NCBI GenBank assembly: GCA_034669905.1
Contig: JAXMOL010000029.1
Span: 1 to 64,000 of the forward strand
DNA: 64,000 bases
Direction: 5' to 3'
Source: Candidatus Hydrogenedentota bacterium
GTDB taxonomy: Bacteria; Hydrogenedentota; Hydrogenedentia; Hydrogenedentales; JAEUWI01
In this document: one piece after another, positions 6,001 through 15,000 of the stretch
Position numbering within the stretch: the first letter of the stretch is position 1
How the letters are laid out: each line of letters begins with the position of its first letter
Made by a program: the position numbers

Positions 6001-9000
6001 GGCTTGCAATGTAGATTGGGGATAACGACTAGTTATAACCCCGTTTACTGTGGGCGCCCAGCCGTGCGAGGGCGCGGGCGAGGGCCCGTTCGGCCCGTTC
6101 CCAATCCAGATCTTCCGGGGGCTTGCGGAGCCGTGTCTGGGCCCGCTCCTGGGCTTCTGTGGCCCGTTCCGGATCAATGTCATCCCCGGGCTCGTAAAAG
6201 CTGGCCAGCACAACCACGCGGTCGGGCATGACTTCGGCGAAGCCACCATGAACCGCGAAGTGATGCGCGTTGCCTTCTGCATCCGAGGCGATGAGCACGC
6301 CGGGCGTCAGGGTAGAAAGCAGGGGGGTGTGTTCCGGGTGCACGGCGAAAACGCCCGCGGCACCGGGGACGACCACCTCGGTCACCTCGAGGATGAATTG
6401 GGGCTTTTCCGGCGCACAGATTTCCAGGTGGAGTGTTGGCTGGGCCACGACTAGTTGCCTTCCATTGCGCCGGCTTTTTCGACGACTTCTTCAATGGAAC
6501 CGCAGTAGAGAAAGGCGTTTTCCGGGAGGTGATCATATTCACCTTCGAGGATTGCCTTGAAGCTGCGGATCGTGTCTTCCACGGGCACAAACTTGCCCTC
6601 CATGCCGGTGAACTGCTCGGCAACGAAGAAGGGCTGGGAAAGGAAACGCTGGATGCGTCGTGCCCGGGCCACGGTCTTCTTGTCTTCTTCCGAGAGCTCG
6701 TCCATACCGAGGATGGCGATGATGTCCTGGAGGTCTTTGTAACGCTGGAGGATTTCCTGAACGCTACGGGCTACATTGTAGTGCTCTTCACCGACGATGC
6801 GGGGATCGAGGATGCGGCTGGTGGAGTCCAGGGGGTCGACCGCCGGGTAGATGCCCAATTCGGAAATCTGACGGGATAACACCGTGGTGGCATCCAGGTG
6901 GGCAAAGGTGGTGGCTGGTGCGGGGTCGGTCAAGTCATCGGCAGGCACGTATACGGCCTGCACCGAGGTGATGGAGCCTTTTTTCGTGGTGGTGATTCGT
7001 TCCTGAAGCTCACCCATTTCGGAGGCGAGGGTGGGCTGGTAGCCCACGGCGCTGGGCATGCGACCGAGGAGGGCCGATACTTCCGAGCCTGCCTGGGTGA
7101 AGCGGAAGATGTTGTCGATGAAGAGGAGTACGTCCTGTCCCTCCTCGTCACGAAAGTACTCGGCACAGGTGAGGCCAGTAAGGGCGACGCGGGCACGGGC
7201 CCCGGGAGGTTCGGTCATCTGACCATAGATGAGGGCGGCCTTGTCAATAACACCGGACTCCTTCATTTCGAGCCAGAGGTCATTGCCCTCGCGGGTACGT
7301 TCACCGACACCGGCAAAGACGGAGTAGCCACCGTGCTGCTTTGCCACGTTGTTGATGAGTTCCATGATGAGCACGGTCTTGCCCACACCGGCACCCCCAA
7401 AGAGGCCGGTCTTACCGCCCTTGGAGTAGGGGGCGAGGAGGTCAATGACCTTGATGCCGGTCTCAAACATTTCCGTCGAGGTGACGAGCTCTTCAAACTC
7501 GGGCGCCGGGCGGTGGATGGGCCAGTGCTGTTCGGCGTTGACCGGCTCTCCGCCGTCGACGGGTTCGCCGATGACATTAAGGATACGTCCCAGGACTTCC
7601 TTGCCGACGGGGGTACGGATGAAGTGACCGGAGTCTTTCACATCCATGCCGCGGACGAGTCCGTCGGTGCTTTCCATGGCCACGGTGCGGACCGTGTTTT
7701 CGCCCAGGTGCTGGGCGACTTCGCAGATCAGCGTGCGCCCGTCGGCGCGCTCGATCTCGAGGGCCTGATATATGGGCGGTAGCTGACCGGGTTCAAAACG
7801 GACGTCTACCACGGGACCAATCACCTGTGAAATGCGGCCTGTGCTCATCGTATCCTCCGAAATTTCTTTGTCGCGGCGGCGTCTCCCTCACCCGAGCGGG
7901 GAGGGGGCCGGAATCATCGCGCAGTGTTTGTTTAAAGGGCTTCCGCGCCGCTGATCACCTCGATTAGCTCAGTGGTGATGGCATTCTGGCGCGCACGGTT
8001 ATATTGCAGGGTGAGTTTATCAATTACTTCGCCCGCGTTGCGGGTCGCTGAATCCATGGCGGTCATCCGGGCGCCCAATTCACTGGCGCTGGATTCCAGG
8101 AGGATACGGTGCATCTGGGTTTCGAGATTGCGCAGCAGCAGGGCGTCGAATACTTCTTCCTGGTTGGGCTCGTAGAGATAGTCCAGGCGCGCTTCCGCGT
8201 CGTCTCCCTCTTCGGGGAGGAAGGGGAGGAGGCGTTCGACGGTGATATTCTGCTGGACGGCCGACCGGAATTCGTTGTAGACGCAGTAGACGGCGCCCGT
8301 CTTGCCCTGGGCATACTCTTCCGCGATGTCATCAATGATGCTCCGGGAGAGGGGCAGGGGTTGGTCGGTCATCCCCGTGAAGTTTTGGCGAATGGTCACG
8401 GGGTGGCGTTTCAACGCCTCGAGTCCTTTGCGGCCGATGACGGTGAGCTGGACTTCCTTGTCATGGAAATCTTCGCGAATGGCCTGCATGGTGCGGTTGA
8501 CGATACCCGCGTTAAAGCCGCCACAGAGGCCCTTGTCAGAATTGACGACAATGATGCCGATCTGCTGGGCGTTTCCGTGGGTCAGCAGCGGGTGGGCATC
8601 CAAATCGGCGCAGCGGGTAATGTGTCCGACCAGATCACGCATATGGAAGGCGTAGGGCCGGGCCTGCTGGATGGCCGCCTGGGCACGGCGGAGCTTGGAG
8701 GCGGCGACCATCTTCATGGCCTTCGTGATTTTCTGCGTGCTCTTGACGCTGCCAATGCGGCGTTTTATGTCGCGAAGATTGGCCATGGACTATTTCTCTT
8801 CCGCGTTTCCGCGGTGGCGGACTTCAAACTGTTCCGTGTAGTGCTTGAGGGCTTTGTCCAACTGGGGCTTCAACTCTTTGCTGAGCTCCCCGGCGTTGCG
8901 GAGGGCGTCAAACACGTCTTTCGCTTCGGTTTCAAAGTGGTGGTAGAGCTCTTCCTCATAGCGGCGTACGGCGCCGACGGGCACGTTGTTGAGGTAGCCG

Positions 9001-12000: not shown

Positions 12001-15000
12001 CATGGCCCCGAGAAAGGCGAGGAACATGACCAGCAGGACCACTATGGTGAAGTTTACCGATACCATGAGACGAGAAGTGCCTTGCTTAGCCGATTACGAA
12101 GAGCATGAGAAGGGCGATAACCAGCGAGTAGATACCCGTGGATTCGGAAACGGCCTGACCAATCAGCATGGTGCGCGTCAGCAGGCCGGCTTCCTGGGGG
12201 GTGCGGCCGATGGCTTCACAGGCCTTACCGGCGGCGAAGCCTTCACCGATTCCCGGTCCGATGGCGCCGAAGCCCATGCAGATGCCGGCGCCGATGAGGG
12301 CACCCGCTTTGATGAGGTCAGCGCCAGCGATGCCGGCTTCGACGGCGGCTTCGGGGGCTTGCGCGACAGCCGTGTTCATAAGAGTCAGAAGAGTGGTCGG
12401 GTCCATCATGGAGGGATTCCTCTAATTGGGCCTAAGGGCCTTGGTCAATCAATGTTGCTTGGTTAAAACGCCGTGTTGGCGAAGGACTACGTAATCAACC
12501 CACCACGTAAAGGAGGGCGAGGGCAATAATCAGGGCATAAATCGCGGTGGACTGGGAAACGGCCTGTCCGATGAGCATGGTGCGCAGAATCAGCGCGTCT
12601 TTGTCGGGGCGCAATGCGGTGGCGGCACAACCTTTCGCGGCGGTGAGGCCACTACCGATTCCCGGGCCAACGCCCCCGAAGCCGACCGCGATGGCCGCGC
12701 CGAATACCTGGGCGAAGCCGAGCAGTCCGGGGTTCAAATCCCCCAGGGCAAACATCATGATAAAGGCGACGAGCATGCCGAAAATCGCGGGCGTTTCACA
12801 TACGGCCTGACCAATCAGCATGGTGCGCAGGGTGACACCATAGGCCAGGGGCCAGCGTCCAATACCATCCACGGCGCCACCGGCGGTCTGTCCCGAGCCG
12901 ATGCCCGAGCCCAGCGCGCTTACGCCCATGGCGAGTCCGGCACTGATGTAGATGCCCATGGTGGGCAGGTCGGTGCCGTTCTGGGCGGTGAGAATGAGGA
13001 TGAGGGAAACGACCAGGGCGAAAATACTGGGGGACTGGGCGACGGCCTGACCGATAATCATGGACTGGGTGAGCTTGGGGCTCCGTGCGGGGTTTCGGGC
13101 GAATCCGGCGCAGGCATTGCCTGCGGGCCAGCCGCAACCGAGGCCACTGCCGAAGGTGCCGAAGCCAATCGAGAGTCCAGCACCGAGGAGCGCGGCGAAG
13201 TAGTTGCCACCAATGAGGTCGAGGTTGGCGGGGGAGACCACGATGATGAAGAGGCCAATGACCAGGGCGAATACGGCGGCACCCTCGCCCACGGCCTGTC
13301 CGATGAGCATGGTGCGGAGCATTTCGCGCTGCACTTTGGGCTGGCGCATGATGGCGTGGTTGGCCATGCCGGCGGCATTACCCATGCCGATGGCGGCACC
13401 GATGCCGCCGAAGCCGAGGGCGACACCCGCGCCAGCGAGTTTGCCGAGAATTAGCCATGTGTGTGGTTCGAGGTCCACGATACTTCCTTACGCGTGCGCC
13501 AGGCGGGCCGTAGTTTGGCAATCGACGGGCGGCAGGCTGCTATTTGATGGCCACCGCGATGTAGGTCAGGGTGAGCATGGTAAATACGAAAGCCTGCACG
13601 GTGCCGACGAAGAAAATGAAAAAGAGATCGAGGCCTACCGCGAGAATGCTGAAGTGGTAGACCAGATTGGAAACAACAATAATGATAATGCTGCCGCCCA
13701 CAATGTTTCCGAAGAGTCGGAAGGAAATGGAGACGACTTTGGCGAGTTCACCAATAATATTGAGGGGGAAGAAAAAGATGGCCGAGAGTTTGCCGGCGAT
13801 TTTGGCGCCGCCGGTGGCCTCGGGCTGGTCCCACATGGGCCCGAGCAATTCTTCGACGTAACCGCCCATGCCCTTGGTCTTGATGGCACACCACGTGGCG
13901 ATAAACATACCCAGGAGTCCGAGGCCGAGGGTACAGTTAATGTCGGCCGTGGGCTCTTCGAAGTAGTGGGTGGGCACGAAGCCGATGAAGTTGCTGAGGA
14001 TCAGGTAGAGGAAGAGGGTGCCGATGAGGGGAAAGAAACGGCGGTTTTTTTCGCGCGTTTCCAGTTCCAGGGAGCTGGTCACCAGGTTGTCAAAGATACC
14101 GGTGAAGAGCTCGACGGCTAGTTGACCCCGCGCCGGGACCATGGCAAACTTGCGCACGGCGAGGCGGGCGAGCACCAGAAGGACCAGCATCACGATGGTC
14201 GCGTTGAACACGGTGAGGATATTGACCCCGCCCAGGGGGATCGGGATATCTGTGAATGGCACGTAGTACCAAGTGAGTCTTTCGCCGATGGATTCCATGC
14301 GACTACACATCTCTCCGCGTGTTGCCCAGCCTCGTAAACGCCAAGGTGATCATGACGATTTGAACAAAGAAAATCCCGATCACCGCTGCGATAAGGCCAT
14401 GATAGAGTTCCCGGTCTAACGTGTAGGCCTTGTAGATCGCAAGCGCATAGAAGAATAAGCGGACGAACGTCCACTTAACCGCTGAGGATTGTAGCTGGGT
14501 GGCATCGGAGGTTGCAAGTTTCTCAACGTTTCTGCCGGTAATCCAGAAGCCGAGGGCGCCGGCCAGGCCCCCCATGAGGACGCTCTTGGCCACGACGGGA
14601 GACCAATAAAAGGTGGCCGCGCAGGTGACCAGCGAGAGGGTCATGGTGTAGCGCACGACGGCCAGGCGAAATGCTTTCAGGGTGTCCACGTTATACTCCT
14701 GTTCGGCCGGGAAGTCGGGTCATGCTATCGGGGAGGGCTTGCGCGCAACAACAACCAGACTGCCATGGCCAGTCCGAGCACCAGGCCCGTGAGAATTCCT
14801 GCGGCGGTTAGCAGTCCATTCGTCTGAAAATGCTTGTCGAGGTTGATTCCGGCCCATGTGCCTGTCAATATATTACCTGTGATGACTAAGCCCACCAGGG
14901 CGACGAGTCGCATGGCATTTCGGATGTCGGATCCGTCGCGATTGTGGGGTGGAGTCATGGTGGGTCTCGACTGAGGCTATCGGCGTACTCTATCACCCAC

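Follow-up and report, generated by a model that had tools for sequence, protein, structure and literature searches.

How many ion sites a ring carries sets the cost of ATP, and the standard account of how a synthase becomes a pump is that the c subunit was doubled and one site was then lost. In F-type enzymes, doubling and site loss have been studied on one two-hairpin case. According to PMC9171764, c1 of Acetobacterium woodii sits once in the ring, together with nine c2/3 subunits (PDB 4BEM). The c1/c2 pair of Clostridium aceticum is also a close known system. Archaeal A-type and eukaryotic V-type c/K subunits can be longer, with three hairpins in M. jannaschii and thirteen in M. kandleri (PMC2359735, PMC9171764). 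An engineered, H+-coupled fused c10 of Bacillus PS3 likewise joins its hairpins covalently, with dead sites placed by design, and loses synthesis through a single E56Q exchange (PMC8809890), which indicates that blind hairpins cannot be taken as harmless in every case. In the literature searched, we found no description of an F-type c subunit with more than two hairpins.

The 64-kb stretch of DNA analysed here (the window) comes from a marine bacterium. It carries twelve F1Fo genes, all on the minus strand, in the order atpZ-I-a-c-c-b'-b-delta-alpha-gamma-beta-epsilon (Table 1), and this content and order, recognised by Pfam and NCBIfam profile matches, are those of an F-type F1Fo ATP synthase. 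The initial annotation had described a canonical F1Fo operon at 6029-14958, in which a first c gene of four fused hairpins (c4) precedes a one-hairpin, Na+-type c (c1). This description is confirmed, as is the pattern that it gave for position 65 of the four hairpins (E65, Q148, E228, Q309, or E-Q-E-Q), including the quoted motifs. Its gene order holds overall except that b and b' were swapped, the shorter b' coming before b. The Pfam search gave no match for b, in which hydropathy indicates an additional N-terminal membrane helix and a loop of about 70 aa. Aligned across loci, subunit a retains the essential Arg198 (RLFGN motif) and Gln239 and has no acid at four residues ahead of Gln239. A promoter and terminator scan was uninformative (5 and 8 sites vs 2.5 and 8.9 in shuffles).

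Table 1. Genes of the F1Fo operon and hairpins of c4, with window positions
Feature	Length	Position	Strand	Profile match or residues
atpZ/gene 1	77 aa	14725..14958	-	Pfam ATPase_gene1, E 6e-7
atpI	128 aa	14303..14689	-	Pfam ATP-synt_I, E 6e-9
subunit a	256 aa	13540..14310	-	Pfam ATP-synt_A
c4, four-hairpin eight-helix c subunit	327 aa	12495..13478	-	four ATP-synt_C stretches, Pfam E 1e-52
c4 hairpin 1		13239..13466	-	Met32, Glu65 (codon 13284-13286), Phe70
c4 hairpin 2		12990..13208	-	Cys115, Gln148, Ser149-Pro150, Phe153
c4 hairpin 3		12747..12968	-	Ser195, Glu228 (codon 12795-12797), Thr229-Pro230, Phe233
c4 hairpin 4		12507..12725	-	Ser276, Gln309, Ser310-Thr311-Tyr314
c1, one-hairpin c	107 aa	12086..12409	-	one ATP-synt_C stretch
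b'	139 aa	11647..12066	-	Pfam ATP-synt_B, NCBIfam B'
b	255 aa	10876..11643	-	weak NCBIfam b matches, E 1e-3, residues 88-251
delta	185 aa	10322..10879	-	Pfam OSCP
alpha	511 aa	8790..10325	-	Pfam
gamma	284 aa	7932..8786	-	Pfam ATP-synt
beta	465 aa	6451..7848	-	Pfam
epsilon	139 aa	6029..6448	-	Pfam ATP-synt_DE_N + DE

The partner c1 carries the full two-carboxylate Na+ motif (Glu56, Glu89, Ser90, Thr91, Tyr94) reported for F. nucleatum (PMC3692424), and it fits the rule [Q/E]..E[S/T][S/T/Q]xxY for Na+-coupled F1Fo enzymes (ProAD supplement). It thus shares E32, E65, S66, T67 and Y70 with the c11 ring of that organism (3ZK1). However, that ring is homomeric and binds Na+ at every hairpin, unlike the proposed ring of c4 plus c1. 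A one-hairpin c follows the fused c in 77 of 80 related loci, and the remaining three stop at a contig edge. Although c4 resembles the A- and V-type c/K subunits in its tandem hairpins and partly lost sites (PMC2359735, PMC9171764), it is F-type by sequence (NCBIfam E 1e-52 for F0 subunit C vs 3e-24 for K), and its gene shares an F operon with that of a one-hairpin c. Identity as a V/A-type K subunit is therefore rejected. As first annotated, a separate V/A-type operon lies on another contig (C26), and K, with one hairpin, is encoded by its own gene on that contig; this K lacks the Na+ motif. An N-ATPase is likewise rejected, as its order is beta-epsilon-X-X-a-c-b(delta)-alpha-gamma (PMC11738941) and N-type loci branch apart.

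The possibility that the fusion is an assembly artefact, raised with the original claim, is refuted by three observations. In locus L001, which is 99% identical, the four hairpins share only 36-42% identity with one another; 109 of 120 homologues among the matches listed have four hairpins; and contigs from four other runs match the stretch at 99% or more, without indel or joint, one 1192-base piece covering 12566-13757 (from a run that may share a study with the stretch). Sequencing error behind Glu65 is ruled out because its codons differ synonymously (GAG or GAA) in three species. A compensated frameshift is unnecessary to explain the altered hairpin-1 stretch, as point changes suffice when the codons are inspected by eye; a brief recombination event could still lie behind it.

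The proposed kinship of a hybrid c4+c1 rotor to A. woodii c1 is supported by structure as well as sequence, 4BEM_J being the top PDB match of c4 by sequence (E 5e-24) and by fold. A single-chain AlphaFold2 model of c4 gave an eight-helix fold (pLDDT 95.7, pTM 0.92) with an rmsd of 1.4 A to 4BEM_J over 155 residues; a single-sequence run (pLDDT 51) was set aside. In both organisms, the fused gene belongs to a canonical F operon and stands directly ahead of the gene for a one-hairpin Na+ c, and the polarity is the same: the first hairpin has E with Phe70 and the last has Q with S/T-T-x-x-Y, here Q309, S310, T311 and Y314. In contrast, A. woodii c1 has two hairpins and four helices, and its first hairpin gives one full Na+ site (Q32 and E65), whereas hairpin 1 of c4 has Met32. 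Since no c4 hairpin has Gln or Glu at position 32, c4 should bring no Na+ acceptor half-site. It also lacks an N-terminal extension, its acids were regained from an acid-free ancestor, and its host possesses both oxidases and a V/A enzyme.

A predicted complex of c4 with four c1 gives weak support for their assembly in one ring, scoring 0.34 vs 0.00 for the best control (116 of 157 solved pairs and 2 of 215 mismatched ones attained the mark for this score, with scores up to 0.60 in 18 and 2), with 89% contact agreement and a partner pLDDT of at least 71. Because a similar complex has already been solved, this result may be memory. Such a weak complex would suit a c4 that stays outside the working rotor as a free chaperone or conditionally inserted inhibitor of a ring of c1 only, which would also make acid-free c4 harmless in genomes where this is the sole ATPase, such as G034. 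We regard this as highly improbable: A. woodii c1 forms part of the ring, and only with c1 neighbours would outward half-sites come under selection at both ends of c4.

Evidence for such half-sites comes from the wider family. Forms with 2-6 hairpins occur in Desulfobacterota, Margulisbacteria, Cloacimonadota, Planctomycetota and others, so the family is not one lineage, contrary to what had been proposed, and appears from its sequences to be an extension of A. woodii c1 to 2-6 hairpins. A search at 574-2000 aa returned a single archaeal protein of 1046 aa and none of F-type, which is weak evidence against longer F-type forms. In 40 complete multi-hairpin c subunits from other phyla, the first hairpin has E65 in all 40, E32 in 31 and Y70 in two, and the last has Y70 in 38 and T67 in 37; E65 is present in 5 of 65 inner hairpins. 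Among 34 Hydrogenedentota-type c4 proteins, Y70 occurs in hairpin 4 (33/34) and never in hairpins 1-3, the last hairpin keeping S-T-x-x-Y, and hairpin 1 always has Met32 (34/34), with E65 in two besides the window's c4. Ser310-Thr311-Tyr314 is invariant in 90 of 90 aligned c4 and, by the donor rule for Na+ sites across neighbouring hairpins (ProAD supplement), is the predicted donor half of the following subunit's Na+ site; hairpin 2 is predicted to be an ion-blind spacer. The conserved ends would be the outward half-sites expected for c4 placed between single c subunits. Natural rotors whose sites range from zero to several, over 2-6 hairpins, are thus available in this family, and a five-hairpin form in the cultured Dethiosulfatarculus sandiegensis (locus L046), an organism with two Fo modules and a single F1, is open to bench work.

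Conservation is not confined to the ion sites. The cytoplasmic loop residues R45-Q46 (hairpin 1) and R128-N129 (hairpin 2) do not vary in any of the 90 aligned c4, and on the hairpin tree, with weak support, the first, inner and last hairpins tend to form groups according to position. Together with the A. woodii enzyme, which is reportedly destabilised by deletion of c1, these features would fit a c4 that serves mainly as an asymmetric piece for docking or assembly (gamma/epsilon seat, ring nucleator or size ruler), its site loss being a tolerated by-product and its gear not selected. This seems quite unlikely to us, as one Hydrogenedentota clade dropped c4 and retained a complete operon, and neither the range of 2-6 hairpins nor the site-specific regain of Glu is explained.

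It had first been concluded that c4 lost half of its carboxylates. This is the wrong direction, as E-Q-E-Q is a rare derived state, found in 2 of 34 complete loci and in 3 of the 109 four-hairpin proteins among the matches listed, 56 of which are acid-free. The 34 complete relatives have no acid at position 65 in 20 cases, one in 12 and two in 2, and the trees nest the window clade among relatives with fewer acids. In AU tests, grouping this clade with the outgroups was rejected for a+alpha+c4 (p=0.0003), but not for the c4 alignment alone (p=0.11; fast search, 36 of 152 rows). The nested position implies that both glutamates were regained, and neither has a Na+ ligand set (M32 for Glu65; S195 with donor-hairpin S-P-F for Glu228), so they are not expected to form two Na+ sites. 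Glu in hairpin 1 arose three times among Hydrogenedentota-type c4 on the tree, the adjacent Pro being gone alongside Glu65; the hairpin-3 changes number 12 on the large tree, with uncertain direction and weak deep nodes. These patterns suggest that ancestors silenced all four acids and that two were won back, and hence that gearing can evolve both ways.

The regained glutamates could also be inert, that is, always protonated and structural, in a ring with about seven Na+ sites that serves chiefly for ATP-driven Na+ pumping next to a V/A synthase. This is close to the functional guess of the initial annotation. The incomplete ligand sets of both acids, the many acid-free homologues, the dispensability of the operon in the genus and the unimpaired pumping in the toy model described below all agree with it. 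We nevertheless consider it unlikely, though it deserves serious attention: the acid falls exactly on the ion-binding position, repeatedly, and with loss of the neighbouring Pro in hairpin 1; the close relative P0015 (E-D-E-Q) gained a third acid; and the sole c of G109 and G114 has Met or Ile at 32 plus E-S-T-x-x-Y, so that such a ligand set can serve a working ring.

From the sequence, family, residue patterns, tree position and co-occurrence, we infer assembly, copy number, ions and direction as follows. The best explanation, to which we assign a probability of roughly 0.55, is that c4 is a cassette in a Na+ rotor, which gave the ancestor a pump-biased low gear and in which the regained Glu raise the gear if they carry ions. 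c4 would be inserted, probably once, in a ring otherwise of one-hairpin c; its last hairpin would complete the Na+ site of the next c1, and its inner interfaces would have no Na+ site, leaving fewer Na+ sites than hairpins and one Na+-free arc (about 7 sites in an 11-hairpin ring, the ring size being assumed). The acid-free ancestor would have combined low gear with a strong bias towards ATP-driven Na+ pumping. In a toy kinetic model whose rates, spring constants and ring sizes are all assumed, an acid-free arc lowers synthesis at least 500-fold vs a full ring and does not slow pumping, and the E-Q-E-Q pattern outpaces the acid-free one at least 200-fold; runs at a spring constant of 200 were dropped, as negligible rates for every pattern marked a discretisation artefact. 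For an 11-hairpin ring at 50 kJ/mol, the predicted thresholds for synthesis are near 173, 194 and 222 mV with 9, 8 and 7 sites. The aerobic window lineage, reversing the step, may have regained Glu228 first and Glu65 second. If ion-carrying, most simply of H+, these residues would split the blind arc into single gaps as in A. woodii, and with both active the gear would reach about 3 ions per ATP, making synthesis feasible again. The enzyme would then be an accessory Na+ motor next to an H+-type V/A enzyme. More tentatively, and with considerable doubt, we propose a site-segregated two-ion ring, with about seven Na+ sites on c1 and two re-evolved H+ sites on c4, into which an acid-free, pump-biased rotor would have been turned back step by step when the lineage adopted oxygen respiration; the gear ratio would be a reversible dial (7, 8, 9 sites) in F-type cassettes of 2-6 hairpins. 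The length of ion-blind arc that a rotary motor can cross, and the sharing of one F-type ring by Na+ and H+ sites, thereby become testable.

The genome, in which a second F-type alpha/beta pair was not found, encodes NQR, Rnf and two oxidases. That the F1Fo enzyme is accessory to the V/A enzyme, as first suggested, is supported within the genus: in eight other genomes, c4 and subunit a are both missing in four (one a single contig), and the V/A A subunit is present in all eight. A heme-copper oxidase accompanies a hairpin-3 acid in 16 of 17 genomes vs 7 of 23 without the acid (by genus-states, 11/12 vs 6/15), an association among kin that was counted by hand; seven genomes with an oxidase keep an acid-free hairpin 3, and cytochrome bd was not found in any of five acid-free genomes tested. 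Of the 23 genomes whose hairpin 3 is acid-free, 16 gave no V/A-type A subunit; in many cases the enzyme is thus no side pump, and a pure side pump for the entire family is weakened by genomes in which F1Fo is the only rotary ATPase found. The A-subunit search had replaced a Pfam V_ATPase_I screen, which was insensitive (6/132; control 1/14). In G034, which has a closed chromosome and encodes NQR, the only rotary ATPase has an acid-free c4. This genome sits badly with a pump bias: either a pump is all that the organism has, or its ATP synthesis exceeds what the toy model permits.

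The operon that contains the four-hairpin c subunit (c4) is real and conserved, and it extends the hybrid rotor of the Acetobacterium woodii type, with four hairpins in c4 against two in A. woodii c1. The initial annotation of a genuine F operon with a four-domain and a one-domain c gene is borne out by a complete gene set on the minus strand and by four Pfam c domains in 327 aa and one in 107 aa (c1). Numbered as in I. tartaricus/F. nucleatum, positions 32/65-66-67/70 read M/E-G-A/F, C/Q-S-P/F, S/E-T-P/F and S/Q-S-T/Y in hairpins 1 to 4 of c4. The single c was rightly called Na+-type, as it reads E/E-S-T/Y, the two-carboxylate motif of F. 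nucleatum c (PMC3692424). An AlphaFold2 model of c4 on a 90-row alignment has eight helices (pLDDT 95.7), and A. woodii c1 superposes on its residues 171-327 with an rmsd of 1.4 A over 155 residues; a designed repeat protein equals A. woodii c1 in Z against this model, but at 4.6 A. Contigs from four sequencing runs align here without indels or joints. Among the matches listed, the runs are metagenomes from plastic, estuary, sediment and marine sources, and the nearest named relatives are Candidatus Hydrogenedentota. The N-terminal extension of c1 could be a leader that is cleaved off or a plug for the pore; with it, single c subunits of Hydrogenedentota typically have 102-112 aa, against 79-100 aa elsewhere.

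Features of the window at and around the ATP synthase operon
Feature	Position	Strand	Basis or remark
Secreted M6 (immune inhibitor A family) metallopeptidase	1643-4654	+	1003 aa, long C-terminal part
ORF directly after epsilon	5044-6282	-	no match in Pfam or NCBIfam; true start probably internal, where a Tat-like motif occurs
Complete F1Fo operon	14958-6029	-	Pfam/NCBIfam and gene order
Subunit b	10876-11643	-	no Pfam match; additional N-terminal membrane helix, conserved charged loop of ~70 aa
N-terminal extension of c1	12338-12409	-	~25 residues
Low-molecular-weight tyrosine phosphatase and fructosamine kinase	15077-16465	+	divergent from the operon
1141-aa ORF	16478-19903	-	by eye, resembles the R subunit of a type I restriction system

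For this family, 80 loci were listed out of 323 confirmed stretches, six of the 80 being cut by the locus end. Their multi-hairpin c has two (6 loci), three (23), four (44), five (1) or six (6) hairpins, and a single c follows downstream in 77 of 80. Record titles name Hydrogenedentota, Desulfobacterota, Margulisbacteria, Cloacimonadota, Planctomycetota and others; several loci titled Nitrospirales fall by sequence within the Hydrogenedentota-type clade and were counted there. Among 132 Hydrogenedentota genomes, c4 was matched at E 1e-30 in 43, subunit a in 74 and a V/A-type A subunit in 104. The six-hairpin c of L042, L044, L047, L054, L055 and L067 has a single Glu (E-Q-Q-Q-Q-Q at position 65), and all three such genomes checked have additional rotary ATPases. 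The subunit b architecture of the window recurs in L005, L010, L144, L149 and L152, in Hydrogenedentota operons with or without c4.

Hybrid rotors containing a two-hairpin c1 are described in PMC9171764 and PMC7911925, and subunits of three to thirteen hairpins in archaeal A-type enzymes (PMC2359735, bioRxiv 10.64898/2026.10.01.756066); an archaeal c/K protein of 1046 aa (P0123) has a length compatible with about thirteen. In the result listings of our literature search, no F-type c with more than two hairpins was found described. Brandt and Muller (2015) reportedly counted about twelve species with fused and single c, among which longer forms may be included. The text of ProAD (PMC11738941) sorts c by number of hairpins, gives logos for one- and two-hairpin forms only, and notes 20 F/N enzymes whose c is acid-free; its GitHub tables probably contain multi-hairpin F-type sequences.

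According to the ProAD supplement, a Na+ site combines Q/E32 and E65 on one hairpin with S/T-S/T/Q-x-x-Y on the preceding hairpin. In 40 complete multi-hairpin c outside the Hydrogenedentota-type clade (two cut loci were left out), the acceptor half is conserved on the first hairpin (E65 in 40/40, E32 in 31/40, Y70 in 2/40) and the donor half on the last (Y70 in 38/40, T67 in 37/40; position 65 Q in 26, E in 14). Most of the 65 inner hairpins have neither (E65 in 5, Y70 in 4). The kept halves point outward, and a single c is therefore needed on either side. A. woodii c1, present in one copy alongside nine single c (PMC9171764), has identical polarity. This polarity, read from sequence, is the main, indirect indication that c4 is assembled into the rotor ring, to which we give a probability of about 85%. 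The predicted complex of c4 with c1 weakly backs such assembly (score 0.34, against 0.00 for the best control; 89% agreement; partner pLDDT at least 71; a similar complex is already solved); in calibration, 116 of 157 pairs with a solved complex and 2 of 215 mismatched ones reached the mark, 18 and 2 of them at no more than 0.60.

Where the initial annotation saw half of the carboxylates lost, trees and counts indicate that both acids of c4 (Glu65, Glu228) were very probably regained from acid-free forms, which have no Glu/Asp at position 65. The 34 complete Hydrogenedentota-type c4 (four cut loci dropped) all have Met at position 32 of hairpin 1; 20 have no position-65 acid, 12 have one (hairpin 3) and two have two. 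Of 109 four-hairpin proteins among the 120 best homologues listed, 56 are acid-free, 47 have the hairpin-3 acid only, three are E-Q-E-Q like c4 of the window and three have other patterns; P0015 has three acids. On all trees (a+alpha; c4 with site columns masked; a+alpha+c4 joined, 33 rows), acid-free forms branch earliest, then G-Q-E/D-Q (SH-aLRT 95.6), and E-Q-E-Q latest (99.7). A constraint that moves the window clade to the outgroups was rejected with the joined alignment (AU p=0.0003) and not with c4 alone (p=0.11). The hairpin-1 stretch of this clade has five neighbouring residues altered and one Pro gone, and is retained in three species with synonymous differences. The c4 tree shows three separate origins of a Glu in hairpin 1, in the window clade, in P0074 and in P0076. 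Hairpin 1 of L007 and L013 has Asp one residue past the usual position, possibly an alternative route to a regained acid. Neither site 1 (Met32/Glu65 with S-T-Y from c1) nor site 3 (Ser195/Glu228 with S-P-F) has the Na+ ligand set, and by the ProAD rule both would count as H+ sites; the site-1 set also occurs in the sole c of the G109 and G114 operons. That the regained acids carry ions is a tentative proposal, at slightly below even odds.

Assuming an 11-hairpin ring with one c4, acid-free, one-acid and window forms would have 7, 8 and 9 ion sites (2.3, 2.7 and 3.0 ions/ATP), with estimated synthesis thresholds of 222, 194 and 173 mV at 50 kJ/mol or 142, 124 and 111 mV at 32 kJ/mol. A toy master-equation model was run under 36 settings, with assumed rates, a spring of 10-70 pN nm and rings of 11-15. 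Four consecutive blind steps either lowered synthesis by a factor of at least 500 relative to a full ring or drove it backwards, and left pumping at 100 mV unslowed. In toy-model runs, seven sites spread evenly greatly outperformed seven placed side by side. With both acids active, E-Q-E-Q synthesised at least 200-fold faster than acid-free c4 wherever the latter synthesised. From this crude model, we infer that the blind arc of c4 could act as a rectifier, an effect that the regained acids would reverse. The real enzyme may cross the blind arc better, judging from the closed genome G034, which has a single alpha/beta pair. That pair also speaks against the c4 enzyme being purely a side pump, as does the lack of a V/A A-subunit match in 16 of 23 genomes with an acid-free hairpin 3.

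Among 40 c4 genomes (G118, cut, dropped; G001 and G002, three hairpins, outside), hand tallies gave a heme-copper oxidase (E 1e-100) in 16/17 with the hairpin-3 acid versus 7/23 without (Fisher 6e-5), or 11/12 versus 6/15 by genus-state (p=0.014), kin not being independent. Two oxidases, NQR and Rnf are encoded in the genome of the window, as is a V/A enzyme with a one-hairpin K subunit that lacks the Na+ motif. In 4 of 8 other genus members (91-96% complete, one single-contig), neither c4 nor subunit a was found.

From 33 Hydrogenedentota genomes with subunit a and without a c4 match, 26 were fetched: four had N-type operons and 22 F operons with a single c, which retains the full Na+ motif in only two. 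Glu stands four residues ahead of the conserved Gln of subunit a in 21 of these 22; among 78 multi-hairpin loci, two have an acid at that place. The 17 operons placed on the tree group together with support 1.0, which implies that c4 was lost once, probably along with a change to H+; this counts as one event rather than a statistic. The Na+ ring of A. woodii works despite one blind hairpin. A single E56Q abolishes synthesis by a fused H+ ring (PMC8809890), an intolerance that loss of c4 with a switch to H+ would fit. In L142, L144-L157, L170-L172 and L174-L176 of this clade, the single c is minus one Na+ ligand and subunit a has the additional Glu, a pairing found independently in L076. Loci L187-L192 (G136, a closed chromosome, and G132, the genome of L046, Dethiosulfatarculus sandiegensis) combine one F1 operon with two Fo modules, one of a, multi-hairpin c, Na+-motif c and b', the other of a separate a and a single c whose motif differs; the two modules may be ion motors that can replace each other on the one F1.
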